From NCBI GenBank assembly GCA_016234725.1, contig JACRAK010000012.1, positions 10,619-74,618 of the forward strand: DNA of 64,000 nucleotides, given 5' to 3'. The position numbers and the translations under genes were made by a program. The number at the start of each line of letters is the position of its first letter. Within the stretch, counting starts at the first letter, position 1. Below are positions 172-51,753 of the stretch, piece by piece. The stretch comes from Candidatus Azambacteria bacterium. Lineage in GTDB: Bacteria > Patescibacteriota > Minisyncoccia > GWC2-36-17 > WO2-46-25. Below the pieces are notes generated by a model that ran no database searches, was not told the origin of the DNA, and saw nothing but the letters and a program-made list of their open reading frames with translations.

Positions 172-200
172 AATCTTACGAGACTAAGTCTCATAAGATT
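172..200. repeat. REP-like hairpin (aatcttacgagact-a-agtctcataagatt) overlapping transposase stop
   Basis: 14-bp stem with 1 mismatch; core GAGACT-N-AGTCTC shared with 924-946 and 721-737. Confidence 0.6.
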
Positions 201-915
201 GTGCTTTTGAGCTATATTCCAATGATAGCTCTCTGATAGCTTCGCTGTCTATTTCTTGTAACCAATTAAACATACTCTTTTTGTGTTCTTCTGGTCCGCC
301 AAAGCAACTATGTAAGAAGCTTCGTGAAGTTACTGAGGGGAAGTTGTGTTTGCCGATATAGTCGGGATAACTGGACCACCGATAATTTTCCAAAAACTGC
401 ATTGCGTCCGCACGATCACCCACCTCTCCCTCTCTCCAGTTTGGAAACTTTAACGCAAAGGGATTTAAATGGAGGTAGTAGGGGAGGTGTATGAAATGAG
501 CCTCGCGCTCAACAAGAACGGCTTTGTATGTGCCTTGGAATAGGGCTCCGGTTCTTTGATACTTTTGGTTGAAGTATGTAGCATACCCCAATCCTACTTT
601 ATGCATAAATTTTGCAATACCTCCTTCCCGCCGCTGTCTCAAGAGCAGGTGAAAATGGTTTGGCATTAAAACAAAAGCCAAGATTTCAACGACCATATCT
701 CTTTTCCTTCGTTCTGATTTATGAGACTTAGTCTCATGAGATTGAAGAAAAGGTTTTTTGTAGTACAAATTAGTTGCGGGCAGACTATCATTAAACTCAA
801 ACAGATCGTGAATGAAGCGAAAATGATCGCTGTCATCCATATAAATATCACGCTTTTCTACGCCGCGATTATAGATATGGTAAATTTCTTCTTCTTCGAA
901 TTTTATTTTTCTCAT
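184..915 (-). CDS. IS200/IS605-family HuH (Y1) transposase, REP-associated tyrosine transposase-like
   Basis: 243 aa; HuH motif LMPNHFHLL; C-terminal GALFQGTYKAVLVE...YLHLNP typical of the PF01797 family; flanked by palindromic hairpins. Confidence 0.7.
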   Translation of the reverse strand: MRKIKFEEEEIYHIYNRGVEKRDIYMDDSDHFRFIHDLFEFNDSLPATNLYYKKPFLQSHETKSHKSERRKRDMVVEILAFVLMPNHFHLLLRQRREGGIAKFMHKVGLGYATYFNQKYQRTGALFQGTYKAVLVEREAHFIHLPYYLHLNPFALKFPNWREGEVGDRADAMQFLENYRWSSYPDYIGKHNFPSVTSRSFLHSCFGGPEEHKKSMFNWLQEIDSEAIRELSLEYSSKAQSYET

Positions 916-2448: not shown

Positions 2449-3177
2449 CTACTGCGCTTCCTCTTTGGAGGTGCTTTTAAGCACATGCAGCTGCTGCATG
2501 ATCGAGAACCCGGTCGTTACCGCAAGATACAGCGCGATGCCCGCGGGGAGAATGTATGCCGTGAACGCGATCACCGCCGGCATCACGTACACCATTTGTT
2601 TTGACATGTGCGCGGAGAAATCGTTCTGCGGGGCGCCTTTTTGCCTCTTTTGCTGGTCTTTCAGCATCATGCGTGATTGATAGAACTGGAGCGCCCCCGC
2701 CATGACCGCAAGCACGACGTTGTGCGTTGCCGCAAGATCGACCATTCCTACAAAGAAATGCTGCATGGCCCCGGGATTCGGGATAAAGCCATAGAGCGCA
2801 TTCAGGCTTTCTTCTTTAAACCCCGCAAAAAATACTCGGTACAGGGCAAACAGGACGGGGAGCTGTATGAGGATCGGTAAAAACCCCGAGAACGGATTTA
2901 CTTTTTTTTCTTTGTACAGCGCCATGACGCGCTTCATTTGCTCGTCTTTATTATTTTTGTATTGCTCTTGGATCTTCTTTATTTCCGGTTGCAGCGCCAT
3001 GAGCTCTTTTTGCGAGCGCAGCGCGCGGCTTGCAAGCGGCCACAACGCGAGCCGCAACAGAACCGTGAGAATGATGATGGCGATGCCGAGATCGTAGAAC
3101 GCCGCGGTTTGATACAACCCTACCAGCGCATTGAACAGCGGGCGGTAAAAAACTTCATTGAACAGAGAACCGAGCAT
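2449..3177 (-). CDS. yidC: Membrane protein insertase YidC/Oxa1 (short form)
   Basis: 242 aa; conserved YidC core (…NPFSGFLPILIQLPVLFALYRVF…); position downstream of rnpA. Confidence 0.8.
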   Translation of the reverse strand: MLGSLFNEVFYRPLFNALVGLYQTAAFYDLGIAIIILTVLLRLALWPLASRALRSQKELMALQPEIKKIQEQYKNNKDEQMKRVMALYKEKKVNPFSGFLPILIQLPVLFALYRVFFAGFKEESLNALYGFIPNPGAMQHFFVGMVDLAATHNVVLAVMAGALQFYQSRMMLKDQQKRQKGAPQNDFSAHMSKQMVYVMPAVIAFTAYILPAGIALYLAVTTGFSIMQQLHVLKSTSKEEAQ

Positions 3178-3183
3178 AGTGTA

Positions 3184-3531
3184 TTACTGGGGAAGCGTGG
3201 GGAGTATTTTTTTAAGCGAAGCGAACACCGCTTCTTTTATGTCATTGAATTGCGCGTCGATGATCCCTTTTTTTGCCACAAACACCATGTCGCGCCCCTG
3301 CGCGGCGACGTGCGGATTTTTTTGCACGATCGCGCGCAGCCTTCTTTTTGCCTTATTCCGTTCCGTTGCCTTTTTCGATACCTTCTTGCTTACCACAAAC
3401 CCGTAGCGGTCCTTCGCGGAGTTGTTGCGGATATATTTTAACAAAAAAAACGGGGTGGCCACAAACCTCCCCCTTCCCAACACGGCATTAAAATCTTTTT
3501 CTGTAACGATCCTCCGAGTCCTTGTGAGCAC
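3184..3531 (-). CDS. rnpA: RNase P protein component
   Basis: RnpA motif FVVSKKVSKKATERNKAKRRLR; likely GTG start at 3531 (the ORF-track start 3630 overlaps rpmH in another frame). Confidence 0.75.
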   Translation of the reverse strand: MLTRTRRIVTEKDFNAVLGRGRFVATPFFLLKYIRNNSAKDRYGFVVSKKVSKKATERNKAKRRLRAIVQKNPHVAAQGRDMVFVAKKGIIDAQFNDIKEAVFASLKKILPTLPQ

Positions 3532-3541
3532 TGTGGCAATA

Positions 3542-3676
3542 TTAGACCGAGAGCCTTGTTCGCCCCCTTCTCCTTCTTTTTGTGATCGTTCGTGCGCCGG
3601 TCTTGGTGCCCATGCGCGCAAGAAACCCATGTTTTTTCGCCCGCTTCTTGTTTTTCGGCGTATATGTTTTTCCCAT
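3542..3676 (-). CDS. rpmH: 50S ribosomal protein L34
   Basis: Manual translation MGKTYTPKNKKRAKKHGFLARMGTKTGARTITKRRRRGRTRLSV*; missed by the >=60 aa ORF track. Confidence 0.85.
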   Translation of the reverse strand: MGKTYTPKNKKRAKKHGFLARMGTKTGARTITKRRRRGRTRLSV

Positions 3677-4011
3677 ACCCTTACGTCCTTTGTTTATTTT
3701 TTATATACTGTACGAAGCGAATTATACGAGGATTCGCGTATAAAAGTCAACCCCGTTACAAGCTTATATGAGGCATTCTTTATGTATTGACGCAAGCCGT
3801 AAGGCGGCTTCGCCTTGGCGCTCACATTAAGAAGAAAATCGTCGACGAGCTTGTAACGGGGTCAACAACACAGGAGCGGGGAAATAAGGGAAGTGCACAC
3901 GATATCCACATCATATCAACAGAAATTGTTCTTTTTCTCCTTGTTTTGCCCATTTCTGGAAATCTTTCCCAGGTGGTATACTTTGGGAAGATTTCTTTCG
4001 CCGCGGGATTT
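3677..4011. promoter_or_regulatory. rpmH<->dnaA divergent intergenic region with DnaA box and inverted repeats (oriC part / dnaA promoter)
   Basis: tATCCACAt at 3903-3911; 14-bp inverted repeat accccgttacaagc (3750-3763)/(3849-3862); extended -10 TGgTATACT about 3978-3986. Confidence 0.45.
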
Positions 4012-5379
4012 ATGGAACACACCGAGCTCTGGCAACACGTGCTTTCCGAGGTTGAGCTGAGCGTATCGAAGGCAAGCTTCAATACCTGGTTTCAGCACAC
4101 CGGGATCCAGTCCAAACAGGATGGCGTTGTTTTTATTTCCGTTCCTAACTCTTTCGCGAAAGAGTGGCTGGAGAATAAATTCAACAAGTTCATCCTGAAG
4201 TCGCTTCGCACCATTTCTTCCGAAGTAAAAGACGTTAAATTCGTGATTGCCGCGTCGCCATCGCCGCTCACCCCGCAAAAAACGAAAAAGAAAAAAGAAG
4301 AGGAGGAAAAAGAGATCGCTCTCGACAATCAGTTTGAGTTTGCCGGCGTAGACGCCGAAACCAACTTAAACAGCAAGTACACATTCGATGAATTCGTCGT
4401 CGGCTCGTCAAACGAGCTCGCGCACGCGGCCGCCATCTCCGTTACCAAAAACCTCGGCACGATATACAACCCTTTGTTCGTGTACGGAGGAGTGGGGGCG
4501 GGGAAAACGCACCTCATTCAGGCGATCGGCAACGAAGTGCTGAAAATGCATAAGGGGAAGAAGGTAAAATATGTCTCTTCCGAGAAGTTCACGAACGAAC
4601 TCGTGAACGCGATCCAAAACAGGAGTATGGAGCGATTCAAAGAGGACTATAGGCAAAACGATGTCCTTATCATCGACGACGTCCAATTCCTTGCCGGCAA
4701 AGACAAAACGCAGGAAGAATTTTTTCACACATTCAATGCGCTGTACGAGAAGAACAAACAAATCATCATAAGCTCTGACCGCCCGCCGAAAGCGATCCCT
4801 ACGCTCGAAGACCGCCTGCAATCGCGCTTTGAAGGAGGGATGATCGCAGACATCGGCTATCCGGACTACGAAACGCGCCTCGCTATATTAAAAAACAAGA
4901 TTATTAAAAAACAGGTTGTGCTTTCCGACGACATTGTTGAATTTATCGCAAATAATTTTCAAAAGAACCTCCGCGAACTTGAAGGAGCGCTCAATAAGGT
5001 GCTTGTCCACATGAAAATAGCAAAAAACCCGCTTTCAGTGGAAGAAGTGAAAAAGATATTGTATCCGTCTATCCATACGCCAAAAAAGAACATCAATGTA
5101 AAACAAATAATCCAGGCGGTCGCGAATTTTTACGGCGTACAAGAAAAACAGCTTATTATCAAAACAAGAAAGCAGGAGATCGTGAAGCCGCGTCAGATCA
5201 TTATGTATTTGCTGCGAGAGGAATTTAAGTTTTCCTACCCTTCTATCGGCAGCAAGATAGGGGGCCGCGACCACACCACTGTTATGCACGCGTGCGAGAA
5301 AATAGAAGGACAATTAAAAGAAGACGAGTCGCTTATAGAAGAGCTTAATCTTATTAAAAAAATTGTGTATAACGCATAG
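4012..5379 (+). CDS. dnaA: Chromosomal replication initiator DnaA
   Basis: Start chosen at MEHTELWQHVLSE (canonical DnaA N-term); Walker A GGVGAGKTHL; C-terminal DNA-binding domain. Confidence 0.9.
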   Translation: MEHTELWQHVLSEVELSVSKASFNTWFQHTGIQSKQDGVVFISVPNSFAKEWLENKFNKFILKSLRTISSEVKDVKFVIAASPSPLTPQKTKKKKEEEEKEIALDNQFEFAGVDAETNLNSKYTFDEFVVGSSNELAHAAAISVTKNLGTIYNPLFVYGGVGAGKTHLIQAIGNEVLKMHKGKKVKYVSSEKFTNELVNAIQNRSMERFKEDYRQNDVLIIDDVQFLAGKDKTQEEFFHTFNALYEKNKQIIISSDRPPKAIPTLEDRLQSRFEGGMIADIGYPDYETRLAILKNKIIKKQVVLSDDIVEFIANNFQKNLRELEGALNKVLVHMKIAKNPLSVEEVKKILYPSIHTPKKNINVKQIIQAVANFYGVQEKQLIIKTRKQEIVKPRQIIMYLLREEFKFSYPSIGSKIGGRDHTTVMHACEKIEGQLKEDESLIEELNLIKKIVYNA

Positions 5380-5584
5380 GATAACAAAAGGATAACGCGT
5401 GCATAAAACCGGTGTTTTAAAAAAGATGTTTTTATCCCCCTTTTTTCCACCGCACTATCTCCTTGTTTTCCCCACTATTGCCAACATGAAAAACATACAC
5501 ACCGCCTGTCTCTATCCTTATTATCCCCACTTTTTCACCCTTTAATTATAACTATAAATTTTTCTTTTTATTTATATATTTATT
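5380..5584. promoter_or_regulatory. Candidate oriC (DnaA-box cluster plus AT-rich unwinding element) between dnaA and dnaN
   Basis: Several TTATCCMCA-like boxes (ggataac x2, ttatccccc, tttccaccg, ttatcccca) followed by an almost pure AT 30-mer at about 5555-5584. Confidence 0.5.
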
Positions 5585-6688
5585 ATGCGGATAATCTGTT
5601 TGCAAGAAAATTTAAAAAATAATCTTCTTACTCTTGAAAGGATCTCTTCTAAAAACCAAGAACTTCCTATTTTAGGAAATGTGCTGTTAAAAACAGAAGA
5701 AGGATTTTTAAAAGCGTTTGCCACTGATCTCGAAATCGGGGTGGAGATCGCTATTCCGTGCAAGATAGAAAAAAAGGGGGAAGCGGTGGTGCCGATCAAA
5801 CTTATAGCGGGATTTATTGCGAATCTTCCCAACACAAAACTCACCTTGGAAGAAAAAAACAATGCAATAGTCATAGAAACGGAAGGGGTCACCACGACCA
5901 TTCCCGCCGCGAATAAAAATGAATTTCCCATCGTCCCGAAAATAAAAGAAGAGAATATGATAACGATGAGCGGCGAGGCGCTGCGAGGCGGGATCGCTCA
6001 GGTGATAAATTCCGCAGCGATCTCGTATACGATCCCGGAGATCGCGGGAGTGTTGTTCGTATGCGGCGCGGACGTAGTGAAGATCGTGGCGACAGATAGT
6101 TTTCGGCTCTCGGAAAAAACACTATTTAAAACCAAAGAGTATGCGATAAAAAAAGAACAGTCATTCATCCTTCCGGCAAAAACCGCAGCCGAACTTTCAA
6201 AAATAATAACCCCCGAAGATGAGATCGTGGAAATATACCTCGCGCAAAACCAAGTACTGTTCAAATTAAAACACGCTACGATCGTGTCGCGGTTAGTGGC
6301 CGGAGAATATCCGAAGTATGAGCGGATCATTCCCAAAACAAGCACGACAAAGATAGCGCTCAATAAAACCGAATTTATTTCAAAACTAAAACTCGCAAGC
6401 CTGTTTTCGTCAAAAATTAACGATGTGAAACTGGACATCCGCGCCAATAAAAACGAAATGGAGCTCACGGCGGCAGACCAGGCAAAAGGGAATTTTTCTG
6501 CAACGATACGCGCAGACATGACCGGAGAAAGCGCCGAAGCACTGTTTAATTATAAATACCTCCTAGACGGACTTTCCAATATCAGCGAAGAGGAGATCGT
6601 GTTCGAGGTGAACGGAGCGGCTTCGCCCGCGATCCTGAAAACAAAGAACGACACATACCAATACGTGGCGATGCCGATAAAAATGTAA
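5585..6688 (+). CDS. dnaN: DNA polymerase III beta sliding clamp
   Basis: 367 aa, three-domain clamp pattern, position after dnaA. Confidence 0.9.
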   Translation: MRIICLQENLKNNLLTLERISSKNQELPILGNVLLKTEEGFLKAFATDLEIGVEIAIPCKIEKKGEAVVPIKLIAGFIANLPNTKLTLEEKNNAIVIETEGVTTTIPAANKNEFPIVPKIKEENMITMSGEALRGGIAQVINSAAISYTIPEIAGVLFVCGADVVKIVATDSFRLSEKTLFKTKEYAIKKEQSFILPAKTAAELSKIITPEDEIVEIYLAQNQVLFKLKHATIVSRLVAGEYPKYERIIPKTSTTKIALNKTEFISKLKLASLFSSKINDVKLDIRANKNEMELTAADQAKGNFSATIRADMTGESAEALFNYKYLLDGLSNISEEEIVFEVNGAASPAILKTKNDTYQYVAMPIKM

Positions 6689-11136: not shown

Positions 11137-12150
11137 TTAGAGTAGCGTTCCCTGATTTTGCCCCGCCTCAAACGGAATGCCCAGGTGCGCGTAGGCGTCT
11201 TTGGTGGCGATCCTTCCTTTCATACTGCGGGCAAGAAAGCCGATCTGCAATAAATACGGCTCGTAAATATCCTCAATGGTCTCGACCTCTTCCGAGGTTG
11301 AGGCGGCGATGGTCTTAAGCCCCACGGGGCCGCCATGGTATTGAGAGATGATGGTCTCAAGAATGCGCAGGTCGGTCGCTTCAAGCCCGATGGGGTCGAT
11401 GTCCATCATCGCGAGCGCCTTGTGCGCAACGTCGCGCGTAACGGGTTCGTGGTCGTGCACCTGCGCATAGTCGCGGACGCGCTTGAGAATACGGTTCGCC
11501 ACGCGCGGGGTGAAGCGCGACGCGTCGGCGATCACATCCACCGCCTCGTCGAGAAGGTTCGCGCCCAAAAGCGCCGCGGAGCGCGCGATGATCTTTTTAA
11601 TTTCGTCTTTCTGGTAAAATTCCAAACGGTGCGTCGCGCCGAACCGCGAGCGGAACGGCGAGGAGAGAAGACCCGCGCGCGTTGTTGCCGCGATAATAGT
11701 AAAGCGGGGAAGCTGTAATTGCAATGTGCGCGCGGAAGGACCTTTGCCTAAAATAATATCAAGCGTGCCGTTTTCCATCGCGGGGTAAAGCATTTCTTCC
11801 ACCACTTTATGCAGGCGATGCGCTTCATCGATAAAAAGCATATCGCCCTCTTCCATATTGGTGAGGATCGCGGCAAGGTCGCCGACCTTTTCTATCGCGG
11901 GGCCCGACGTCACTTTCAGCGCCGCGCCCATTTCTTTTGCGATGAGGTTGGCGAGCGTGGTCTTGCCGAGTCCGGCGGGACCGTACAGCAGAACGTGCTC
12001 GATCGGTTCTTTGCGCTTGCGCGCGGCCTCGATAAGAACGCGCAGATTCCGTTTTATCTTTTCTTGGCCGATGTAGTCGTCCCAGCGCCCCGGTCGGAGG
12101 GCTAGGTCAAGCGAGGCGTCTTCTTTTTTGAGTATTTGTTCGGGAGGCAT
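11137..12150 (-). CDS. ruvB: Holliday junction branch migration ATPase RuvB
   Basis: AAA+ Walker A GPAGLGKTT, sensor motifs, winged-helix C-term. Confidence 0.9.
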   Translation of the reverse strand: MPPEQILKKEDASLDLALRPGRWDDYIGQEKIKRNLRVLIEAARKRKEPIEHVLLYGPAGLGKTTLANLIAKEMGAALKVTSGPAIEKVGDLAAILTNMEEGDMLFIDEAHRLHKVVEEMLYPAMENGTLDIILGKGPSARTLQLQLPRFTIIAATTRAGLLSSPFRSRFGATHRLEFYQKDEIKKIIARSAALLGANLLDEAVDVIADASRFTPRVANRILKRVRDYAQVHDHEPVTRDVAHKALAMMDIDPIGLEATDLRILETIISQYHGGPVGLKTIAASTSEEVETIEDIYEPYLLQIGFLARSMKGRIATKDAYAHLGIPFEAGQNQGTLL

Positions 12151-12191
12151 ACCCCTCTATTTTACTACATTTTTGAGCTTCGCGCGCCCTA

Positions 12192-12220
12192 TTGACAAAG
12201 CCAATTTTGTTTGCTATAAT
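12192..12220 (+). promoter_or_regulatory. Consensus sigma70 promoter TTGACA-N17-TATAAT driving the sRNA candidate
   Basis: Perfect -35 and -10 hexamers with 17-nt spacer. Confidence 0.6.
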
Positions 12221-12225
12221 TGGGC

Positions 12226-12437
12226 ATCAAAAGTATTTGGCAGTACAGCTAAAACATTAAAAACTCACTGACCTGTAGGCAATTAAGATTTTCTCGTTGA
12301 TCTTAAATAGGGGTGCTTCTCAGCTTGGGTAGCTTGGTTCCGACTGAACTATTCCTCGGATGTATTCTTTACTCTTGGCTCCGGCTAGGATTTTTGCCTA
12401 CAGGTTTGTGAGTTTTTTATTTTCTCTGTTTTTTTTG
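12226..12437 (+). ncRNA. Candidate structured small RNA (about 200 nt), unclassified (6S-like long closing stem)
   Basis: No ORF; 12-bp closing helix ACCUGUAGGCAA(12269-12280)/UUGCCUACAGGU(12393-12404) extended by CUCAC/GUGAG, followed by U-run; internal hairpin UUAAGAU..AUCUUAA. Confidence 0.45.
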
Positions 12438-12445
12438 GAGCTATG

Positions 12446-14119
12446 TTATTGTCCTGCGACGGATTCTATCTCTTCAATGGTGGTAAGTCCCGCAAGCACT
12501 TTCAGAAAGCCGTCCTGCTTGATCGATATCATGCCGCTTTTGCGCGCAAGCTCCCATAATTGCGATTGCGTGGGTTTTACGATGATCACTTCTTCCGCGT
12601 CTTTGCCCACCGCGAACATTTCATACAGCCCAACCCTTCCTTTATAGCCGGTGTTGTTGCACAGCTTGCATGCGGAAGGCCGAGACACCATCGTGTATTC
12701 ATCGAGAGCCGGTGCCGCAACGCGCAGCGAGAGGTCCGCGAACGCCGTTTTTAATTTCTGAAGCTCTTCTTTCGTCACCGGGCTTTTCGTGGAACAATGC
12801 GCGCACACTTTCCGCACCAGACGCTGCGCGATCAGCATATTGATCGCCGGCGCGATGATGTTCGGAGAAAGATCCATATCAATGAGCCGCAAGATCGCGC
12901 TTGGCGCATCATTGGTATGCAGTGTAGAGAATACCAGGTGGCCCGTCAAGGCGGCGTGGAGCGCGATGTCCGCTGTTTCCATGTCGCGGATCTCGCCCAC
13001 GAGTATCACGTCGGGGTCTTGGCGTAAAATAGAACGAAGTCCGGAAGAAAACGTATACCCGGCTTCGGTGTTCGTCTGGCTTTGTGAAATGCCGTCGACA
13101 TGATACTCGATCGGGTCTTCGATCGTGATGATCTTCACCGCAGGGGAGTTTATCTTTTTCAAAAACGCGTAGAGCGTCGTGGTTTTTCCCGACCCCGTCG
13201 GGCCGGTGACCAAAATAAGCCCGTTGGGGCGCTTCAGTTCCTTCGCGACCAGCTCCAGGTCGTGCGGCAAAAGGCCCAGGTCCTCAAGCGGAATGGAAAT
13301 GGTCTTGGGATTGAGGATACGCATCACGAGCGATTCGCCGTTGGGCCCCGGAAGCACCGAGGTGCGCACTTCGATCGACTTGTCGCTTGCCGTAATGGAA
13401 AAACGGCCGTCTTGCGGCGCGTTGGTCACGTTCAATTTAAGGCGCGAGAGCACCTTGATACGGCTGTTGAGGAGCGCATACATTTTTTTATCCAGCGTCG
13501 CGACCTCCTGGAGCACGCCGTCGATGCGGAAACGCACCGTCACGCTGTCTTCTCGCGGTTCTATATGGACGTCCGAGCTGTCGAGCGCGAGCGACCCCGC
13601 AATGATAAGCTCGATCACCGCGGTGGCGTTTTTAAGCACTGCGCGCAAAAACACGTCCTTGAAATCGTCGACATAATGGATCTCCTGCTGGAGCTTTTCG
13701 AGGTTCTCGGGCGTGATCTCAATAGTGCCCGACACATCTTCTTTTTCTTTCGGCAGGAGCGCGTAAAACCCCCATGCGTGGTCCAAGCTCCGGCCCGAGG
13801 CGAGAAAAAGATCGACGATAAGCCCTTTGTTCTTGAGATTTTCTATCATGAGCATCGTCTGCGGATCCTTCGGGTTTTTGACGGCGATCTTGAGGTTGGG
13901 GCCGAATTTCTGTATCACCGCGAGATGCGCGCGGCGGGCGGTTTCTTCGTCCACGGTCGAGAGCGAATCCGCGTTGATGGTCTGCGAAGAAAGGTCGACA
14001 TACGGGATGCCTATTTTCTCGGAAAAGCGCTGTGCCGCCTCTTCTTCTTCTTTCTTGCGCAGTTCTTCAAATTTCGCCTGCTCCTTCTTTTCTTCAAATG
14101 TATGTTCACGCATGGTCAT
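12446..14119 (-). CDS. Type II secretion/type IV pilus assembly ATPase (GspE/PilB family)
   Basis: 557 aa; Walker A GPTGSGKTT, Asp box, His box and tetracysteine motif CxxC…CxxC of GspE/PilB. Confidence 0.8.
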   Translation of the reverse strand: MTMREHTFEEKKEQAKFEELRKKEEEEAAQRFSEKIGIPYVDLSSQTINADSLSTVDEETARRAHLAVIQKFGPNLKIAVKNPKDPQTMLMIENLKNKGLIVDLFLASGRSLDHAWGFYALLPKEKEDVSGTIEITPENLEKLQQEIHYVDDFKDVFLRAVLKNATAVIELIIAGSLALDSSDVHIEPREDSVTVRFRIDGVLQEVATLDKKMYALLNSRIKVLSRLKLNVTNAPQDGRFSITASDKSIEVRTSVLPGPNGESLVMRILNPKTISIPLEDLGLLPHDLELVAKELKRPNGLILVTGPTGSGKTTTLYAFLKKINSPAVKIITIEDPIEYHVDGISQSQTNTEAGYTFSSGLRSILRQDPDVILVGEIRDMETADIALHAALTGHLVFSTLHTNDAPSAILRLIDMDLSPNIIAPAINMLIAQRLVRKVCAHCSTKSPVTKEELQKLKTAFADLSLRVAAPALDEYTMVSRPSACKLCNNTGYKGRVGLYEMFAVGKDAEEVIIVKPTQSQLWELARKSGMISIKQDGFLKVLAGLTTIEEIESVAGQ

Positions 14120-16817: not shown

Positions 16818-17942
16818 ATGGAACAGTTCTTGAGCTTAAAAGAACTGGGGAGCCGACTCTATAAGGTCGACATGCTTGTTGTTGCTCTCTTGAAGCGCCG
16901 AATGGATTTGGCGCTTCAAGTAGGGGAGTTCAAGGTAAGGAATGGGCAAAAGATTTTTCGTGCAAGCGTCGAATCAAAACGATTGGCTCAGGTGAAAGCT
17001 GAGGCGCGCAAGCGCAATCTAAGCCAGCACTTTGCAGCATCCATTCTGTATCAAGCTATAAATGAATCATGTAAGCAGCAAATGATTCAGTTGCAAAATA
17101 CAAATGCTCGGCGGCACAAAAAGGCAAAAACCGAAAAAGAGAGCTACCGCCTCTTGAAAAAAAACCTTCTGCTTCTTACGAGGCGATGGGCTGATTCATA
17201 TGATGATCAGTATGACAAAGCTTTTTTTGCGACGCACGCTTATCTTGATTTCGAGGATCAGATCCTCGAGCAAGAGATAAGGCAAATTGCTGATCGGGGA
17301 ATTGCTTTGGACTTGGGGTGTGCAACAGGAAGGTTGTCTACGAAGCTTTCCCCGTCATTCAGATGGGTGTATGGATACGATCTGAGTCCTCATATGCTCA
17401 TGAAGGCAAACGCAAAAGAAAAAAAAGTCCAAAATGTCAGCTTCATTGAAGCTGATTTAGAAAAAGGAATTCCTCAGTCAGACAGTTCGGTATCGTTTGT
17501 GGCAATGAATTTAGGTACGGCAAGCGATATCCGTGATATTTCCGGAGTTCTTAAGGAGGTTAAGCGCGTCCTTGTCTCTGGCGGAAGGTTTTTCTTCTCG
17601 TTTTACAATCGAGAAGCGTTGTTGTATCAATGGGATTTCATCCCATGGCCAGTTGGACTTGCTGCTGAAATCAACATCCACAAACATTGCCTAGACGTTC
17701 ATTTAGGCGCAAAGGTTTTGTCAGTATATGCTCGTCCGTACACCTCGAAGGAGGCGAGGAATCTTTTCCCTAAAGGAATGAAGCTTTCGAAGGTTCTTAC
17801 TCACCCAACGATCAGCTCCATTCTTCCTAATAATCTGTTTGAAGGAAAAGCATCCATTCAAAAGTCTGTGGCTGATATCGATCGACACCTTGCAAAGGCT
17901 CACGATGGCGCATATATCATCGTAACAGGTAAAAAAATGTAG
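16818..17942 (+). CDS. Fusion protein: N-terminal AroQ-type chorismate mutase-like domain + class I SAM-dependent methyltransferase
   Basis: N-term RLYKVDMLVVALLKRRMDLALQVGEFK (AroQ pattern R..ID..D..LL.LL..R..L..VG..K); C-term LDLGCATGR and VLVSGGRFFF methyltransferase motifs. Confidence 0.55.
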   Translation: MEQFLSLKELGSRLYKVDMLVVALLKRRMDLALQVGEFKVRNGQKIFRASVESKRLAQVKAEARKRNLSQHFAASILYQAINESCKQQMIQLQNTNARRHKKAKTEKESYRLLKKNLLLLTRRWADSYDDQYDKAFFATHAYLDFEDQILEQEIRQIADRGIALDLGCATGRLSTKLSPSFRWVYGYDLSPHMLMKANAKEKKVQNVSFIEADLEKGIPQSDSSVSFVAMNLGTASDIRDISGVLKEVKRVLVSGGRFFFSFYNREALLYQWDFIPWPVGLAAEINIHKHCLDVHLGAKVLSVYARPYTSKEARNLFPKGMKLSKVLTHPTISSILPNNLFEGKASIQKSVADIDRHLAKAHDGAYIIVTGKKM

Positions 17943-23026: not shown

Positions 23027-24115
23027 TTAGATCACCTCCTTTGTTTTGACATGCCCCCAAATTAACTGTAAGGCTTTAAGTTCAATTAATCGTGGAATCA
23101 TGATCTTAAAGAGTTTGCAGTATGGGGAAGAAGTGGTGGCTAGGTCATGAGCTCCAAAATTGATGACGGGACATCCGCCCCCACAAACAAGAGACCACTG
23201 GCAATCTTGACAGCCCTTGTAATCAAGCACATCTTTTGAATGTAGTTCGGGAAAAGTGTCTTGAGACCACGCCATTTCCAAAAAGGTTTTCTTGGTTTCA
23301 AGATTGCCTATCGGCTTTTTATCCATCCTTGCCTGGCAAACAAATACATTGCCGTTATGATCAACGGCTACGCCGGAATGGCCAAGATTGCACCCTCGTA
23401 AATGAGGCTTCCTATCGAGATGAATCTCGCACAGCTGTTGCGCGGCAACGGCGCTATGATTACGAATTGCAAGAGCGTAATAATCATAGCAATCATTAAG
23501 GGCGCTCGAAGCTTTTTTCATAAAGTCTTCGTATCCCTTAAAATCTCCTACATTATCCCGATATAGACCATAACGAAACGGAATGCTTGCATCAATCAAA
23601 AAACGGCTCAGCATAGGCACGCCGGAAATATTTCTATCCGTTATGGTTGTTAGTATCGTCGGGCGGACATCATTCCCCATGCATAAGTTCAGATTTTTGG
23701 CCACGACATCAAAAGAACCGGTGCCAGCGCCGAAGAAGCGTGTTTTGTTGTGCCACTCACCTAAACCATCTAACGACATACAGACCCTCACCGAGTTATC
23801 TTTAATCATCTTTATTAGATTAAGATCGAGCAGAGTCCCGTTTGTCAGTAAGATTAATTTAGCGCGAATACCTTTTTCTACGAATCGTTTCTGAGTCTGT
23901 TCGATCAAAAAATTAATCAACGTTTTATGCAGCGTGGGCTCTCCTCCAGCAAGACGTATTGTTACTAGGTCCAGACCGTGATGGCTTACAGTTTGTTCAA
24001 GCTTATCCAGATATAAGCTTGCTGTCTGAAAAGACATGAACTTTTTGTCCTTATTTATATAACAGTAAGGACATTTTAAATTACAGCAGTTGGCTATATG
24101 GAGCCATGTGCTCAT
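23027..24115 (-). CDS. Radical SAM/SPASM-domain peptide maturase A
   Basis: CNLKCPYC (CxxxCxxC) and C-terminal SPASM CQDCQWSLVCGGGC; start at MSTWLH (upstream TTG extension possible). Confidence 0.7.
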   Translation of the reverse strand: MSTWLHIANCCNLKCPYCYINKDKKFMSFQTASLYLDKLEQTVSHHGLDLVTIRLAGGEPTLHKTLINFLIEQTQKRFVEKGIRAKLILLTNGTLLDLNLIKMIKDNSVRVCMSLDGLGEWHNKTRFFGAGTGSFDVVAKNLNLCMGNDVRPTILTTITDRNISGVPMLSRFLIDASIPFRYGLYRDNVGDFKGYEDFMKKASSALNDCYDYYALAIRNHSAVAAQQLCEIHLDRKPHLRGCNLGHSGVAVDHNGNVFVCQARMDKKPIGNLETKKTFLEMAWSQDTFPELHSKDVLDYKGCQDCQWSLVCGGGCPVINFGAHDLATTSSPYCKLFKIMIPRLIELKALQLIWGHVKTKEVI

Positions 24116-24185
24116 GCCCTTAACATTGTTTTTTTCTAGACTAGGTCTAAACAGCGGAGCATCTTTTGGTTGAATAAGTCCGTTT

Positions 24186-24491
24186 TCAAGCAGAAGTTTT
24201 ATCCGTGGCAAATCTTTCTCGGTCTGAAAAAGGGACAGATTGTCTATAAAGAAGCTTAGTTCTCATGTCGAGCAGGACCACGCCTCTTTTGCTTCCAGGG
24301 ACAAGCGCATAACCATAGCCGTCTACTTCTCCTGTGTAACAATTACCCGTCTTTTTATATGCCTCTATTTCCCTCATTTTCTTTCCTCCGTAGGTTTTAT
24401 GATGTTGTAAAAGATCTTTTCGTATTTGTCTTTCTAATAACATAACAATAGCGTTTTTGTCAAATTCTTCATAAGAAGGGTTACTAATCAA
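24186..24491 (-). CDS. Hypothetical 101-aa protein upstream of rSAM A (non-ATG start)
   Basis: ORF with TTG start and no SD; possibly an accessory/RRE-like protein or not expressed. Confidence 0.2.
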   Translation of the reverse strand: MISNPSYEEFDKNAIVMLLERQIRKDLLQHHKTYGGKKMREIEAYKKTGNCYTGEVDGYGYALVPGSKRGVVLLDMRTKLLYRQSVPFSDRERFATDKTSA

Positions 24492-24502
24492 TAAAAATGA
24501 AA

Positions 24503-24529
24503 AACTCCCTTTCTAAGGAGTTTTTCTTG
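24503..24529. terminator. Bidirectional terminator hairpin (aaaaactccc-tttctaa-gggagttttt)
   Basis: Perfect stem with flanking A/T runs; followed by repeat copy B. Confidence 0.5.
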
Positions 24530-24550
24530 GTTCGCGTTTTTACTGTACAA

Positions 24551-24624
24551 CCGTCAACCACTTTTTGTAGCGGGGGAGTTTGCCGGAAACTATCTGGGTA
24601 TATGTTTCTCGCAGGTGTCTGGTC
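24551..24624. repeat. Conserved about 75-bp noncoding element, copy B
   Basis: see 21872-21950. Confidence 0.55.
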
Positions 24625-24686
24625 GTGGATCGGTAAGCATTGTAAATAAAAGACCTTTTGTGTAGGATACAAGCGAAAGGAAAACC

Positions 24687-25400
24687 ATGATCCCACGACT
24701 TGTCCAGCAAATCACCTATTGGCCGATATACCTCTTTTTTAAAGTGTTTTTTTGTTTTCGCGTGGAAGGACAGGAGAATCTGAAAGGACTGGAAGACAAG
24801 CCGGTTATTTTTGCGTCAAACCATGCAAGCTTTCTCGATGGTCCCATGTGTGCAGTGGCGATGCCGCGGGAAGGAATCGTACCAAAAAAGTTTTTTGCCA
24901 TGCGGTTTCTTGTCGCAAAAGAAGCGTTCGCGTTGGTAAAAAACGTCGTTCCGTTTCCCATATCTATAATCTTTGCGATCTATGTGCGTATGAATGGGGG
25001 CGTTCCCGTGGTGAGAGGCATGAACAATATTCAAAAAAATCTTGAGGAAGCAGTGAGGATACTTAGCAAGGGAACAAAAATGTGGATTTTCCCGGAAGGG
25101 AAACTGTCAAAAGACGGAACGCTTCAAAAAGGGAAGCGGGGCGTTGCCTATTTGCATCAAGCAACTAGCGCGGCTATTGTGCCGGTAGGGCTTATCGGCA
25201 CGTGTCGCATGCCTTCACAATTTTTTCGTTTCCAGCGTCCGTGCGTGACGGTGCGCATTGGCTTGCCAATGCATATTCCCGAAGGCGTTTCCTTGGAAGA
25301 GGGGACGGACATGATAATGAAGGAAATAGGACTGCTTCTTAGTGGCATGGCCACTTCATTGACCACGGCACGCGTAGAAAAAGCGCCATCAGCGATTTAA
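24687..25400 (+). CDS. plsC: 1-acyl-sn-glycerol-3-phosphate acyltransferase (PlsC family)
   Basis: NHASFLDG (HX4D) and FPEG motifs; putative promoter TTGTAA-17-TAGGAT at 24638-24666. Confidence 0.7.
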   Translation: MIPRLVQQITYWPIYLFFKVFFCFRVEGQENLKGLEDKPVIFASNHASFLDGPMCAVAMPREGIVPKKFFAMRFLVAKEAFALVKNVVPFPISIIFAIYVRMNGGVPVVRGMNNIQKNLEEAVRILSKGTKMWIFPEGKLSKDGTLQKGKRGVAYLHQATSAAIVPVGLIGTCRMPSQFFRFQRPCVTVRIGLPMHIPEGVSLEEGTDMIMKEIGLLLSGMATSLTTARVEKAPSAI

Positions 25401-25419
25401 ATTAGAAAATAAAAAGGCG

Positions 25420-25455
25420 GCGTAGGCGATAATTGAATCGCCGCCTTTTTATTTT
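25420..25455. terminator. Bidirectional terminator (aaaaaggcggcg…cgccgccttttt)
   Basis: GC stem with A/T flanks after plsC. Confidence 0.55.
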
Positions 25456-25465
25456 AGAATAACTC

Positions 25466-25561
25466 CACCCTCTTTTGTTTTTTGCCGACAGGATCAGAAA
25501 AACCGGGCGTGGCGGAAGTTATGGCGGAAAGCTTTGAAAAATAAAGGTTTTTTGGTATCAT
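25466..25561 (+). promoter_or_regulatory. Conserved regulatory element copy 1 (GGCGGAA-N5-GGCGGAA direct repeat + TTGAAA-N17-TATCAT promoter)
   Basis: Shares the core (a)tc(t/a)gaaaaaccgggcgtggcggaagttatggcggaaa(a/g)ctttgaaaaataaa with copies 2 and 3. Confidence 0.6.
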
Positions 25562-25567
25562 GAAAAC

Positions 25568-26587
25568 ATGAAGCTACGATTTATAACATCAAAAATAGAG
25601 AATCAATTCTTCTTTATCGCGAATCTTTCTGAATGGCATTTTTCATGTCGATTAGATTATAACCAGGCGTGGATCGAGGAAACAGGAGCATTGAGCAATG
25701 AAGAGAAAAGGAAGCTCAAAGTCTTCGCAAGTATCTTGCAGAAACATGGATTTACTTACGATAAGAATGGAAAAACAAAATACATCGGTAAATATTTTTA
25801 TTGTTATTCGGAGGAAAAAGCATGGGAAGAATTGGGAAAAAATATTACCAAAAAAGAGGCCCTAAGAATAAAAAATGTTTTTAAGATTTTTGAACCACGA
25901 TTTGAAAAAACATGGAACCCGCAAGAGCTCGCGGCAAGAGTAAAAACAATACAAAGTTTTACAAAAGAAAAAAGATGGAAGGAGCTCGTGCAGCGCGTAA
26001 ATATATTATTTGGGGGGCCTGCCATAACAAAAAAGATTTTTATTGTTGTCTTGATTTCTCCTCTGGCAGGAGAAGGAGTGACGGCTGCCGGTAGCGCAAA
26101 TAACGGAGATCAATGCATAACATACGAGATTCCCAAATTAAAAAATGGAGGGTGGGAGCGTGATTATTCTATGGGAGTTTTAGCTCACGAGATCGCTCAC
26201 GCGTTGTTTTCTAAAAAAGGCGGCGAAAAAGAGATTGCAAAGATTATTAAAAAAGAAAATATTCCTGCGCATATAAAAGGATTCCCCACGAGCGCTGTTT
26301 CTGTGATTAACGAGGCCATTACAGAGAGCTTTATTCCCCTCGGCTACCTTGGTCAAAAATATGCTGGGAGAGACCTCGCTCCGTTATTGTTAGATAATAG
26401 CGATAAAGGATGGCTCACAGAAGAAAAGACAAAGAAAGAGAGAGGAATTAATTACCGCAATATAAGAAAATATCTTATCTGGCAATTGTATCCTCTTGCT
26501 GTTATATATGGACGACAAAGTAAATCCATCGATGCATATTTTATCAGGCAGGCAGTATTATTACTGAAAAATGCGCTCGGCAAATAA
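25568..26587 (+). CDS. HExxH-motif putative metallopeptidase (paralog, module B)
   Basis: 339 aa; GVLAHEIAHALF … VINEAITESF. Confidence 0.4.
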   Translation: MKLRFITSKIENQFFFIANLSEWHFSCRLDYNQAWIEETGALSNEEKRKLKVFASILQKHGFTYDKNGKTKYIGKYFYCYSEEKAWEELGKNITKKEALRIKNVFKIFEPRFEKTWNPQELAARVKTIQSFTKEKRWKELVQRVNILFGGPAITKKIFIVVLISPLAGEGVTAAGSANNGDQCITYEIPKLKNGGWERDYSMGVLAHEIAHALFSKKGGEKEIAKIIKKENIPAHIKGFPTSAVSVINEAITESFIPLGYLGQKYAGRDLAPLLLDNSDKGWLTEEKTKKERGINYRNIRKYLIWQLYPLAVIYGRQSKSIDAYFIRQAVLLLKNALGK

Positions 26588-26601
26588 AAAAAAGGCAACC
26601 G

Positions 26602-27681
26602 TTAGGGTGCCTGTGGTATTGCCGATGCTTTTTGGAGAAAAAGCTTGATGTAGTCGAACATCCTTTTTCTTGTCTCGCAAAAAGGGTAGTCTCCGCCATA
26701 GTTTCCTGTCGCCCAGTAGGAGTCGGCTCTGCATCCGCCACGACAAATTGCTACATATTCGCAACGGCCGCATTTTTCAGCATTGTGATTGCTTCTTATT
26801 TCAGCGAGCGCCTTAGTTTTTGATCCCGCTAAAGCATTGATCAGTGATTGGCTGAGGATGTTACCAAGCATAAACCTCTCTTCCACCAATGAACCACAGG
26901 GAACGATGTTTCCTTCTTGATCAATGGTGATCATTTTCTTTAAGCAAGAGTTAGCAAAGGAGCACCCTCTCGGTCTCTGGCCAAGAAGCGAGCGCATCAT
27001 TGTGTCGAGCGGCTCGATTGAGGGAAAAGAGTTTTCCGTATGCGCCCAAAGATCGAATACGTCCTTATAGAAAGCAAACATTTCATCGTTTGAGGGCATT
27101 ATCGGTCTTTCTGAAAGTGGCACGCTTTTTAGAGGCAGCAAGCCAAATGAGTTCACGCCGAGAGCTTCATAGAAATGAAATATCTCTTTGGCGCGAGAAA
27201 CATTTAGTTTACTTATAACAGAAAGAACACCAAGAGGCATGCCAGTCGCTTTTATTTCTGCGCAAGTTCTTAATAGCGCACTTATATCAGAGCGGCGATG
27301 AGCTATGTATACATCTGTTGGCGCATCAAGACTAATCCCCACATGGAAATCATTCTTTTGAAGAAAATCAATCCACGAGGCATCCAGCAAGAGGCCGTTT
27401 GTTTGGATGTTGTTGTGATATACAATGCCTCTTTTTTCCGTTTCCTCCTTCTGGGCATTTATTACTTCTTGATAAAAATTTTTACCAACAAGAAGCGGTT
27501 CGCCGCCATGCCAGCAGAACTCGACACTGTCAAAGCCGATGGAGGCATTATGAATCATAACCCTGATGTTTTTTATCTCGAACTTTTTTATGTTTCTTCG
27601 AGAGGCGCGTGAGTAACAATACACGCACTGAATGTTGCAGTCAGATCCCGTGATCATGATGATCGTCATGGCTTTCTTCAT
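26602..27681 (-). CDS. Radical SAM/SPASM-domain peptide maturase B
   Basis: CNIQCVYC and SPASM CGRCEYVAICRGGC. Confidence 0.7.
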   Translation of the reverse strand: MKKAMTIIMITGSDCNIQCVYCYSRASRRNIKKFEIKNIRVMIHNASIGFDSVEFCWHGGEPLLVGKNFYQEVINAQKEETEKRGIVYHNNIQTNGLLLDASWIDFLQKNDFHVGISLDAPTDVYIAHRRSDISALLRTCAEIKATGMPLGVLSVISKLNVSRAKEIFHFYEALGVNSFGLLPLKSVPLSERPIMPSNDEMFAFYKDVFDLWAHTENSFPSIEPLDTMMRSLLGQRPRGCSFANSCLKKMITIDQEGNIVPCGSLVEERFMLGNILSQSLINALAGSKTKALAEIRSNHNAEKCGRCEYVAICRGGCRADSYWATGNYGGDYPFCETRKRMFDYIKLFLQKASAIPQAP

Positions 27682-27756
27682 AAAATTCGCTCCCGTGTTT
27701 TTTTGAATGCGGATGTGGAGGGAGGGGGTATTTACTACCCCCTCCTGTTCGAGCTA

Positions 27757-27939
27757 TTACTTGGTGCTGGCGTCGCGATAATGATCGTGCGACGGTTGAT
27801 CGACCCAGTGATCGTGTTTCATGCTCAGCGAGTCACCGTTTTTAATCTTGGCAGTCGCTTGAGTAATGATCTTTTGCACGGGTCCGGATATGCAGACGCC
27901 TGACATATCCTTAACATGACTATCGATTCCGCGTTCCAT
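27757..27939 (-). CDS. 60-aa candidate precursor peptide B (His/aromatic-rich C-terminus)
   Basis: SD aaggagggtaaat-ATG; MERGIDSHVKDMSGVCISGPVQKIITQATAKIKNGDSLSMKHDHWVDQPSHDHYRDASTK; hairpin GGAGGGGG…CCCCCTCC between it and rSAM B. Confidence 0.45.
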   Translation of the reverse strand: MERGIDSHVKDMSGVCISGPVQKIITQATAKIKNGDSLSMKHDHWVDQPSHDHYRDASTK

Positions 27940-28100
27940 ATTTACCCTCCTTTCTTTGAGTTTTCAGCCCATTAGATGGCTGAAATTGGGGTTTCCATTA
28001 ACGAAATTATTAAAGGACATAACAAGCGCATATATACGCTTTTCCCTTTATGATGTCAACGCCCTGTGTATGCCGCGCCCTGTATGACACTGTATGGCAA

Positions 28101-28238
28101 GTTTAAGAAACTACGCAACCACTCAAAACATATTTTATCACCCAACAACCCCATTGTTTTTAAAGATAATCTGAAAAACCGGGCGTGGCGGAAGTTATGG
28201 CGGAAAACTTTGAAAAATAAAATTGTTTTTGATATGAT
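28101..28238. promoter_or_regulatory. Conserved regulatory element copy 2 between divergent promoters (rSAM-B operon on - ; HExxH c on +)
   Basis: about 125 bp about 90% identical to copy 3; -35 TTGAAA 28210-28215, -10 TATGAT 28233-28238; minus-strand TTGACA-17-TATATA at about 28020-28050. Confidence 0.6.
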
Positions 28239-28264
28239 GGAGAGGGAAATTAAACAAAGAAACA

Positions 28265-28978
28265 ATGAGCACCCCGCGTGTTATATTTTCTTACAATCAG
28301 GAAAAAGATATCAAAAACATTCAAATTGGACTTGATACTGTGAGTCGCGGCAGACAACCAGATAGAGAGCTTGTACAAATTATCCAGCAATACGGCAGCG
28401 CGCCATCAGAAGAAGACATCAAGGAATATTTAATTTCTCGATGGAAGAATAAAAGGGGTGTCCCTGACCTTATCGTAAAACAACTCCAAGAATATTGGGA
28501 CACAATAGAAGAAAAATATTTTAATCATCTTGCAGATCGAATGCAGCTCACGTCCTTTCATGGAATTAAACAGCTAGGCGGTTTTTTAAGTGTGCGTTAC
28601 GGAAGCGGTTATAATACTGAACAACAATGGTTTGCGGTAAGTGTGTATAATAGCACCCTAAAGAACACATTAACGGCAATGCATGAGATCATGCATATTT
28701 TTTTTCATAAACAATGGTGGGATTTTTGCAAAAAACAAGGATTGCCCGATAACAATATATGGGATGTAAAAGAATCAATGACGGTGCTTTTAAATTTGTG
28801 GTTTAAAAATCAGGTTATTGATACTGATTGGGGATATGATGAGCACGCCGAGCTTCGCCGTTTCATTATAGATTGGTTTTTGGAAACGAGAGATTTTAAA
28901 AAAACATTGGAAAGGGCGTGTATATATATGAAAGAACACTCAGAAAAAAGCCCTGATTGGATAACCAATCAGGGCTAG
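28265..28978 (+). CDS. HExxH-motif putative metallopeptidase (paralog, module C)
   Basis: 237 aa; TAMHEIMHIFFHK … ESMTVLLNLWF. Confidence 0.45.
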   Translation: MSTPRVIFSYNQEKDIKNIQIGLDTVSRGRQPDRELVQIIQQYGSAPSEEDIKEYLISRWKNKRGVPDLIVKQLQEYWDTIEEKYFNHLADRMQLTSFHGIKQLGGFLSVRYGSGYNTEQQWFAVSVYNSTLKNTLTAMHEIMHIFFHKQWWDFCKKQGLPDNNIWDVKESMTVLLNLWFKNQVIDTDWGYDEHAELRRFIIDWFLETRDFKKTLERACIYMKEHSEKSPDWITNQG

Positions 28979-29002
28979 TTTGCTGATGTAAAACACCAGC
29001 TT

Positions 29003-29155
29003 TTAGGAGCCATCGCAGCCGTCTGTGCCGCCGTGACATCCTGACTGGCATACGTTGCAGCCGCTGTTGTCACAGGTGCCACCGCTGTTGTCGCATGCGG
29101 CTAGTACGGTAGTAGCCGACGATCCTTCAATGAGCGAAGAAAAAGCGAGCTTCAT
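29003..29155 (-). CDS. Cys-rich RiPP precursor candidate C (50 aa, seven Cys)
   Basis: Manual ORF MKLAFSSLIEGSSATTVLAACDNSGGTCDNSGCNVCQSGCHGGTDGCDGS*; perfect SD aaggaggtgattg; downstream of rSAM C on same strand. Confidence 0.6.
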   Translation of the reverse strand: MKLAFSSLIEGSSATTVLAACDNSGGTCDNSGCNVCQSGCHGGTDGCDGS

Positions 29156-29226
29156 AACAATCACCTCCTTATTGGGAGTTTCTGTGTTTTGCTGACTCCT
29201 TCCCAGTGAGTAGCAAGTGGGGGTGT

Positions 29227-49427: not shown

Positions 49428-49476
49428 TGCCGTTGCGTATTACTGATAACTACCGGTTGTTCCGGTGGTGTATTTG

Positions 49477-49850: not shown

Positions 49851-49916
49851 CAACATCCCCGAAACTATAAAACATAAAACATGGAACTTGAAACATAAAA
49901 CTAAAAGATTCAAGTT

Positions 49917-51614: not shown

Positions 51615-51753
51615 GTCTCCCTCCCTTTATATTTTGTTTTAATGTGCGTCGTTTTTTGAATACGCGTGTTGTACGCTATTTTTATGCATCAGTCAAGAGT
51701 GTAAAAAGCCTGTTTTCTTGATAGTTTCTAGGTTTTCGAGTACCATAGCTACT

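Follow-up and report, generated by a model that had tools for sequence, protein, structure and literature searches.

The window analysed here is a stretch of 64,000 nucleotides (nt) of Candidatus Azambacteria bacterium (assembly GCA_016234725.1, contig JACRAK010000012.1, positions 10,619 to 74,618 of the forward strand), a member of the Patescibacteria or Candidate Phyla Radiation (CPR). The subject of this report is a plus-strand gene for a structured non-coding RNA, which fills the spacer at 12151-12445 of the window between two minus-strand genes and belongs to a family found in many other patescibacterial lineages. The Patescibacteria, whose genomes are tiny, account for a large part of bacterial diversity, and almost none of them have been cultured. 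To our knowledge, very little is known of their non-coding RNAs beyond rRNA, tRNA, transfer-messenger RNA (tmRNA) and a diverged RNase P RNA.

The RNA gene and its locus

The RNA gene diverges from ruvB (11137-12150, minus strand; Pfam RuvB_N, AAA_lid_4 and RuvB_C) and is convergent with a gene for a PilB/GspE-type ATPase (12446-14119, minus strand; Pfam T2SSE, E = 4e-117). Its promoter is a 12/12 match to the extended sigma-70 consensus on the plus strand, consisting of the -35 hexamer TTGACA (12192-12197), a 17-nt spacer and an extended -10 element (12212-12220) in which TG at 12212-12213 is followed by one base and by TATAAT at 12215-12220. When both strands were scanned, this was the sole 12/12 promoter match in the whole 64 kb. 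The predicted primary transcript, of ~195 nt (12227-12423, plus strand), was placed from the geometry of promoter and terminator, with its start set 6-9 nt past the -10 element and its end within the U tract. The 5' leader (12227-12258) is not conserved and is predicted to fold into a small hairpin at ~12233-12255, and the U tracts at 12413-12436 (U runs 12413-12423 and 12429-12436), which come after the closing helix P1, likely form an intrinsic terminator together with that helix.

The segment 12228-12437 of the plus strand has a minimum free energy of -70.3 kcal/mol (z = -6.2), and none of 200 shuffled sequences folds as well. In this fold P1 is the closing helix, P2 and P5 are hairpins, and P3-P4, located between these two, is a long hairpin with an asymmetric internal loop. 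The closing helix corresponds to an inverted repeat with 30-nt arms at 12253-12282 and 12394-12423, which are 87% complementary, have 111 nt between them and contain ACCUGUAGGCAA/UUGCCUACAGGU plus CUCAC/GUGAG.

An earlier note, made from the letters of the window alone, had proposed an independently promoted non-coding RNA of about 200 nt at this place. The promoter that it gave as TTGACA-17-TATAAT at 12192-12220 was recovered exactly, as was its closing helix with strands about 110 nt apart and a following U-tract. Its argument that a gene convergent with the GspE gene cannot be a 5' leader was upheld and is reinforced by lineages in which the RNA gene is inverted or has other neighbours, and the proposal as a whole agrees with the homologues described below, which have promoters of their own, with their covariation and with the lack of any Rfam match. 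The statement that no open reading frame (ORF) exists in any frame is not literally correct, as mechanically called ORFs of 32, 47 and 95 amino acids overlap the RNA region, but it stands in substance: no ORF is conserved among the homologues, and no codon (3-nt) periodicity was detected in the RNA region. No tRNA was found within the region.

Two further observations were made at the locus. Read on the minus strand (12249-12282), P1 has a U-rich run, GUGAGUUUUUAAUGUUUUAG, after it as well, and to judge by its sequence the helix could also end pilB transcription, that is, serve as a bidirectional terminator. In addition, a weak promoter-like site for ruvB (TTGTCA-18-AAAAAT, 9/12; 12169-12198, minus strand) lies back to back over the -35 hexamer of the RNA gene, and the divergent ruvB and RNA promoters may compete for polymerase.

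Architecture of the RNA

The 5' strand of P1 (12259-12282) has a variable lower half and an upper half, CCUGUAGGCAA, that is conserved in sequence. Its partner, the 3' strand UUGCCUACAGGUUUGUGAGUUUUU (12394-12417), is identified by the covariance model match, which also places the 5' strand, and by covariation and the inverted repeat. P1 is followed by the P2 hairpin, UUAAGAUU/GAUCUUAA (12283-12306), placed from the fold and optional in the family, and then by P3, which covariation identifies as the pairing of GGGGUGCUUC (12310-12319) with GAUGUAUUCU (12359-12368). The asymmetric internal loop between P3 and P4 has UCAGCUU on its 5' side (12320-12326; family consensus UYAG plus 3-6 nt) and CUCG on its 3' side (12355-12358), where C-U-C is conserved. 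P4 (12327-12354) is a hairpin with a UCCG loop at 12339-12342 and a near-invariant G-U/G-C step, formed in the window by G12336-U12345 and G12337-C12344 and preceded by U12335-G12346. The last hairpin, P5 (UCUUGGC-UCCG-GCUAGGA, 12373-12390), was placed from the fold and is optional or variable among the homologues. All of these elements are on the plus strand.

The core shared across the family is a rod composed of P1 (~24 bp), P3, the asymmetric internal loop and P4. Sequence conservation along the rod is found in the upper half of P1 (consensus YCUGURGGCA / UGCCYACAG), at the base of P3 (GGAAU... / ...AUUCU) and at the base of P4 (GGR / UCC), in addition to the G-U/G-C step, which sits one helical turn above the internal loop, near the apex. 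Among the 35 long-form sequences the G-U pair of the step is kept in 29 and the G-C pair in 33, and the G-U pair is present in 41/41 short-variant sequences and in 7/7 sequences in each domain of the composite form. The peripheral parts vary: four loci (L019, L023, L037 and L059) lack P2, and the short variants have a 10-nt bulge, CGACAAGCAU, in its stead; P5, which the short variants also lack, occurs twice in L019, L023 and L059; and the apical loop is dispensable, variable or enlarged by 14-32 nt.

Homologues and covariation

The spacer sequence picks up homologues upstream of ruvB in other Parcubacteria. The first sample of homologues was gathered via ruvB, so that linkage to ruvB is built into it. 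A covariance model, R1, was built from five sequences with the window RNA among the seeds, and finds the RNA in 40 of 80 ruvB loci; five more loci were added by a family nhmmer profile and two by a second model, R2, described below, which brings the count to at least 47 of the 80 Patescibacteria ruvB loci. The window itself scores 145 bits with R1 at 12259-12417, as a seed sequence, and 22 bits at 12261-12415 with the independently built R2. Of 44 ruvB-locus homologues, 42 are preceded by a perfect TTGACA at a 17-nt spacing from the -10 element, with 10/12 promoter matches or more in all, and the TG of the extended -10 element is present in 32/44.

Folding combined with covariation from homologous loci, which the earlier note had suggested as a check, gave strong compensatory covariation. 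In the alignment of long variants, 91% of cells hold standard pairs, against 38-50% when the partners are slid by 1-3 columns; changes on both sides were seen in 46 of 48 pairs, and none of 500 shuffles reaches any of the observed measures. Compensatory changes occur in all 23 pairs of P1, in which 93.6% of cells are paired, and in 10/10 pairs of P3. Results for the short variant were similar, and the top pairs of a structure-blind analysis by mutual information with average product correction (MI-APC) are almost all pairs of the model. The plus strand can be identified as the RNA strand because G-U pairs are frequent, which would be A-C mismatches on the other strand, and because the promoters lie on the same strand.

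The distance from promoter to P1 ranges from 5 to 140 nt across the homologues. In a close relative whose RuvB is 92% identical (L001:145-390, reverse strand), a largely palindromic insertion of ~180 nt lies between the conserved promoter and P1, and the 5' leader is therefore free to vary.

Short and composite variants

Some of the ruvB loci (L015, L025, L035, L072 and L076) carry a short variant of the RNA, an unbranched hairpin of ~115 nt with the 10-nt bulge on its 5' side where P2 would be. A 21-nt motif of this variant, CTGYRGRCACGACAAGCATGG, matches at least 120 metagenome contigs, and 41 sequences found with the motif were used to build the short-variant covariance model R2. This model confirms nearly all of 80 retrieved metagenome loci and also cross-detects long variants. 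The metagenome copies carry TTGACA-17 promoters of their own, with a perfect -35 hexamer in 55/74, and in many of them P1 reaches ~30 bp and is then followed by a U tract.

At 11 loci (L144, L153, L158, L162, L166, L177, L184, L192, L194, L197 and L205; for example L177:478-860) two short-variant copies occur in tandem, ~200 nt apart. RNAalifold applied to the tandem loci indicates a composite RNA of ~400 nt with a covarying helix, CCUGUAGGCC/GGCCUACAGG, the sequence of which is that of the top of P1 in the window. Enclosed by this helix are the second copy, a hairpin that varies, and a linker that is specific to the lineage and conserved there as AAUUUGUCACCUUCCA..AAAUUUGAGAAAAUUUUUAUCUC. The family thus comprises modular forms of ~115, ~160 and ~400 nt around one conserved rod.

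One form of the bulge, CACGACAAGCAUGG (for example in L143 and at L015:1700-1812), is complementary at 10 of 14 positions to what we take to be the universal 1055F primer site in helix 34 of 16S rRNA. No complement to the short-variant bulge was found in 23S rRNA, 5S rRNA or the 5' half of 16S rRNA on contigs L200 and L201.

Genomic context

In many of the loci collected through ruvB the RNA is located between pilB and ruvB, and in the motif-based metagenome sample only ~8 of 80 copies adjoin ruvB. A functional link to ruvB was considered and rejected, the association being a product of the ruvB-based collection of loci. In the arrangement seen most often in the metagenome sample, the RNA follows clpP on the same strand and converges with a VanW-like gene; the other neighbours include genes for metallophosphoesterase, DHH/DHHA1 and inositol monophosphatase family proteins, a Y-family polymerase and a radical S-adenosylmethionine (SAM) enzyme. 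The RNA gene lies the other way round between pilB and ruvB at L063:2723-2901 and L044:1077-1253, where it is codirectional with ruvB and is equipped with a promoter of its own and a separate terminator hairpin. As the RNA gene has different neighbours in different lineages and may be inverted, it is a free-standing gene that does not serve the adjacent genes as a leader, an antisense element or a terminator. In two of the short-variant loci a conserved gene of ~330-366 amino acids lies between the RNA and ruvB (L015:1858-2958, L072:1956-2948), apparently within the ruvB operon.

Comparison with known RNA families

A scan against Rfam, the other check that the earlier note had suggested, was run with Rfam 15 (4227 families) at the gathering score or at E<=10. 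No relevant match was returned at either threshold for 12100-12500 of the window, for 10 long-variant loci or for 10 short-variant loci, the hits obtained all being spurious matches to CRISPR-DR, snoRNA and miRNA hairpin families. Scans of ~560 kb of loci at gathering scores returned only tRNAs and rRNAs. No canonical signal recognition particle (SRP) or 6S RNA was found in ~0.7 Mb of CPR sequence, where only about one would be expected, and this result bears decisively on 5S rRNA alone; the SRP and 6S identities are excluded on features, which are given with the alternatives below, and not by elimination. Regular expressions and nhmmer with E. coli ffs also found no canonical SRP RNA on the contigs that carry the RNA.

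The earlier note had been unable to match the region to tRNA, tmRNA, RNase P RNA or SRP RNA, and this agrees with the lack of Rfam matches and with the absence of the features that define these classes. RNase P RNA was rejected on the lack of an Rfam match, of CR-I/CR-V, of a P4-type pseudoknot and of covariation beyond nested helices. The window holds rnpA (3184-3630), and an RNase P RNA is therefore expected in the genome; published CPR RNase P RNAs retain the conserved core (PMC8172020). The region is not tmRNA, a canonical copy of which is encoded elsewhere in the window (49474-49860, minus strand) next to smpB, nor 5S rRNA, since contig L201 has the CPR RNA together with canonical 23S and canonical 5S rRNA (85.7 bits). 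A riboswitch or cis-acting leader was rejected on the convergent orientation of the downstream gene, which is pilB in the window and a VanW-like gene in short-variant loci, and a retron msr-msd on the lack of a reverse transcriptase among the neighbours (ruvB, pilB, clpP, VanW-like and others). Within the RNA, a pseudoknot of UUAG with CUAA was inconsistent by eye and had no mutual-information support, and readings of the internal loop as a K-turn, sarcin-ricin motif, T-loop or CsrA site were rejected because the required GA/AG or loop-exposed GGA is not conserved.

Bacterial Y RNAs, which associate with Ro/Rsr, share with the CPR RNA a 3' U tract, internal modules that vary, and a long terminal stem that contains a block of conserved sequence. 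In contrast, no Y RNA model matches the CPR RNA and no rsr/TROVE gene is found among the neighbours examined, and the distribution of Y RNAs is sporadic while that of the CPR RNA within its lineages is near-universal. The orphan lineage-specific RNAs OLE, raiA and Bacteroidales-1 are similar in being restricted to one lineage, strongly covarying and without an assigned biochemical function, but they are unrelated to the CPR RNA in sequence and structure, and none of them gives a match through Rfam 15. Searches of the literature on 6S, SRP, non-coding and structured RNAs of CPR/Patescibacteria turned up no description of the family. As far as the tools and libraries tell, the RNA family is specific to Patescibacteria, widespread there and without a described counterpart.

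Proposed function and alternative explanations

That the element is an independent, non-coding and structurally constrained gene with a strong promoter, widespread in the CPR, is near certain. The explanation preferred here, which we hold to be somewhat on the probable side, is that of an independent gene for a stable, strongly transcribed and trans-acting structured RNA that works as a protein-binding platform. Transcription would be ended by P1 and the U tract, and P1 probably doubles as a double-strand processing site of the RNase III type that would give uniform ends, a role suggested because the leaders differ from 5 to 140 nt between lineages. The product would act in trans as a stable RNA with its ends set by P1. 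The rod would be the protein-binding platform, with the internal loop and the G-U/G-C step as the recognition surface, and the RNA would be a subunit, or a sequestering partner, of an abundant housekeeping protein. Protein binding is proposed because conservation sits in the helices and one loop while peripheral modules come and go, which is the pattern of protein-binding RNAs and not that of seed-pairing small RNAs or of ligand pockets. Taken separately, and judged from sequence conservation, the protein-platform part is a serious candidate that falls a little short of an even chance. That the RNA is a previously unrecognised housekeeping RNA of the CPR, a subunit or regulator of an abundant and lineage-wide ribonucleoprotein with a standing like that of 6S, SRP or RNase P RNA, is put forward tentatively.

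Several points weigh against this explanation. The step to a protein platform draws on the pattern of conservation alone, and the gene neighbourhood yields no functional clue. The terminator role of P1 is not universal, because a U tract directly follows P1 in only a minority of copies, namely 16/44 long-variant and 28/70 short-variant copies. Finally, of the alignments behind the covariation counts, A4 was model-fitted to the structure and A7 was seeded with a fixed motif, and both inflate some of the numbers.

Among the alternatives, the RNA could be the 6S RNA (ssrS; RF00013 and relatives) of the CPR, that is, an open-promoter mimic that sequesters the sigma-70 RNA polymerase holoenzyme and is released by synthesis of a product RNA. 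The earlier note had called the architecture 6S-like, and this held for the long 5'/3' closing stem and the rod form. Independent transcription from a very strong promoter, a length of ~160-195 nt and optional central hairpins are likewise shared with 6S RNA, and the P1 of 24 bp and the ~195 nt of the window RNA agree with the closing stem and the ~150-200 nt of that family, with the ~115-nt short variants falling outside. No canonical 6S RNA was found in the ~0.7 Mb of CPR sequence scanned with Rfam, and the 10-nt 5' bulge beside P1 in the short variants could in principle be a template. The likeness is nevertheless superficial. No 6S model matches the window region or 20 homologue loci at E<=10, and the alignment of E. 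coli 6S RNA to R1 scores just 1.6 bits (E = 5). 6S RNA has a large two-sided central bubble, whereas the 5' side of the P1-P3 junction measures 0-2 nt in L019, L023, L037 and L059, and the two sides are 10 and 1 nt in the short variants; a bubble open on both sides, and with it a strand to mimic the non-template strand, is therefore lacking. P1 is moreover an A-form duplex that is close to perfect, whereas 6S RNA has periodic bulges, and the conserved marks of the CPR RNA, the asymmetric loop and the G-U/G-C step, are unlike those of 6S RNA. A 6S identity is accordingly judged unlikely.

The RNA could also be a base-pairing regulator, with conserved single-stranded segments that pair in trans with mRNAs or rRNA. 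Such pairing could involve UYAG / CUC of the internal loop or the bulge CGACAAGCAU, or else CACCUUCC, which resembles an anti-Shine-Dalgarno sequence and is found in the composite form; single-stranded nucleotides are indeed conserved, and the conserved linker of the composite form contains GUCACCUUCC. The bulge and the linker, however, are each limited to some lineages, the window having P2 instead of the bulge, while the universal conservation is in paired regions, and the search of 23S, 5S and the 5' half of 16S rRNA on the same contigs gave no complement of the bulge. This explanation is improbable.

The conserved internal loop, asymmetric and set between G-U-rich helices, and the complexity of the ~400-nt composite form could be cited in favour of a free-standing aptamer or ribozyme with a ligand-sensing or a catalytic role. 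No pseudoknot or long-range tertiary covariation was detected by MI-APC, though, the junction linkers are variable, no ribozyme or riboswitch model matches, and there is no downstream gene to control, which makes such a role very unlikely.

A highly divergent SRP RNA of the 4.5S type (clan CL00003) that binds Ffh is suggested by the short variant, a single hairpin of ~115 nt with conserved internal loops along the rod as in 4.5S RNA, by the lineage-wide occurrence and strong promoters, and by the near-apex 5' strand UCAGGUC of short variants, which is the same as in E. coli 4.5S RNA; the lack of canonical SRP RNA in ~0.7 Mb of CPR sequence points the same way, though only about one was expected there. 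On the other side, no member of the SRP clan matches at E<=10, and R1 and R2 with filters off match nothing at E. coli ffs. The marks of SRP RNA are missing: in place of the conserved GNRA tetraloop the apical loop is UNCG-like, variable or enlarged by 14-32 nt, a tolerance of large insertions unlike that of 4.5S RNA, and neither the 4x4 symmetric loop with AGCA nor the asymmetric loop with ACCA is present. An SRP RNA is thus a very doubtful identification.

On a cis-only reading, the spacer between pilB and ruvB would hold a bidirectional terminator or an insulator together with the divergent ruvB promoter region and would yield no functional RNA. This reading would fit the U runs after P1 on both strands, the weak minus-strand promoter-like site over the -35 hexamer and the position between pilB and ruvB in many loci, but it leaves unexplained the conserved 110-nt interior with its strand-specific covariation, the strong promoter of each copy, the inversion of the gene in some lineages and the ~8 of 80 metagenome copies beside ruvB; it is largely refuted and has hardly any likelihood left. 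A small protein gene, or a mobile or selfish element such as a miniature inverted-repeat transposable element (MITE) or a retron msr-msd, has next to no likelihood, for although the mechanical ORFs of 32-95 amino acids overlap the region and the long inverted repeats resemble retron a1/a2 repeats or MITE ends, the ORFs are not conserved and have no codon periodicity, the RNA is single-copy in the window and has neither a reverse transcriptase nor a transposase gene beside it, no phage record was matched by blastn, and 46 matches to the P1-top pattern in viral contigs are chance occurrences in coding DNA, none of which passes R1.

Other features of the window

The best matches of RuvB are 92-96% identical and come from metagenome-assembled genomes labelled Saccharibacteria or Patescibacteria, and a match at 78% is labelled Candidatus Azambacteria; by these relatives the window is assigned to the Patescibacteria/Parcubacteria. 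The genes rnpA, yidC, dnaA and dnaN are present at 2449-6688, and the window therefore lies near the replication origin. For the tmRNA at 49474-49860 (minus strand) the score is 129 bits and a long tag, ANLFSKVKNAIALSFAPLSFARV, is predicted, and an 11/12 promoter-like site is found within the 3' part of smpB (50072-50043). A class I tRNA synthetase of 1201 amino acids (51718-55323, plus strand; tRNA-synt_1, Anticodon_1, DUF5915) has a histidine phosphatase domain (His_Phos_1) inserted at residues 521-689. The stretch 23027-30534, with low GC (0.37-0.43), contains three radical SAM/SPASM genes and unannotated ORFs, and may represent an acquired island or a gene cluster for peptide modification. 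At 184-915 (minus strand) an IS200-like Y1 transposase domain is encoded by an ORF, and at 16818-17942 (plus strand) a chorismate mutase type II domain is fused to a class I SAM methyltransferase domain.

Conclusions

The RNA is kept across many CPR lineages in genomes that are shedding most non-essential functions, which makes an important role likely. With covariance models, a consensus structure and invariant features, the family is now defined in a way that makes its function testable, and better annotation of thousands of metagenome-assembled genomes would follow. Should the RNA prove to stand in for 6S or SRP functions, or to supplement them, the view of the minimal RNA repertoire of bacteria would change.

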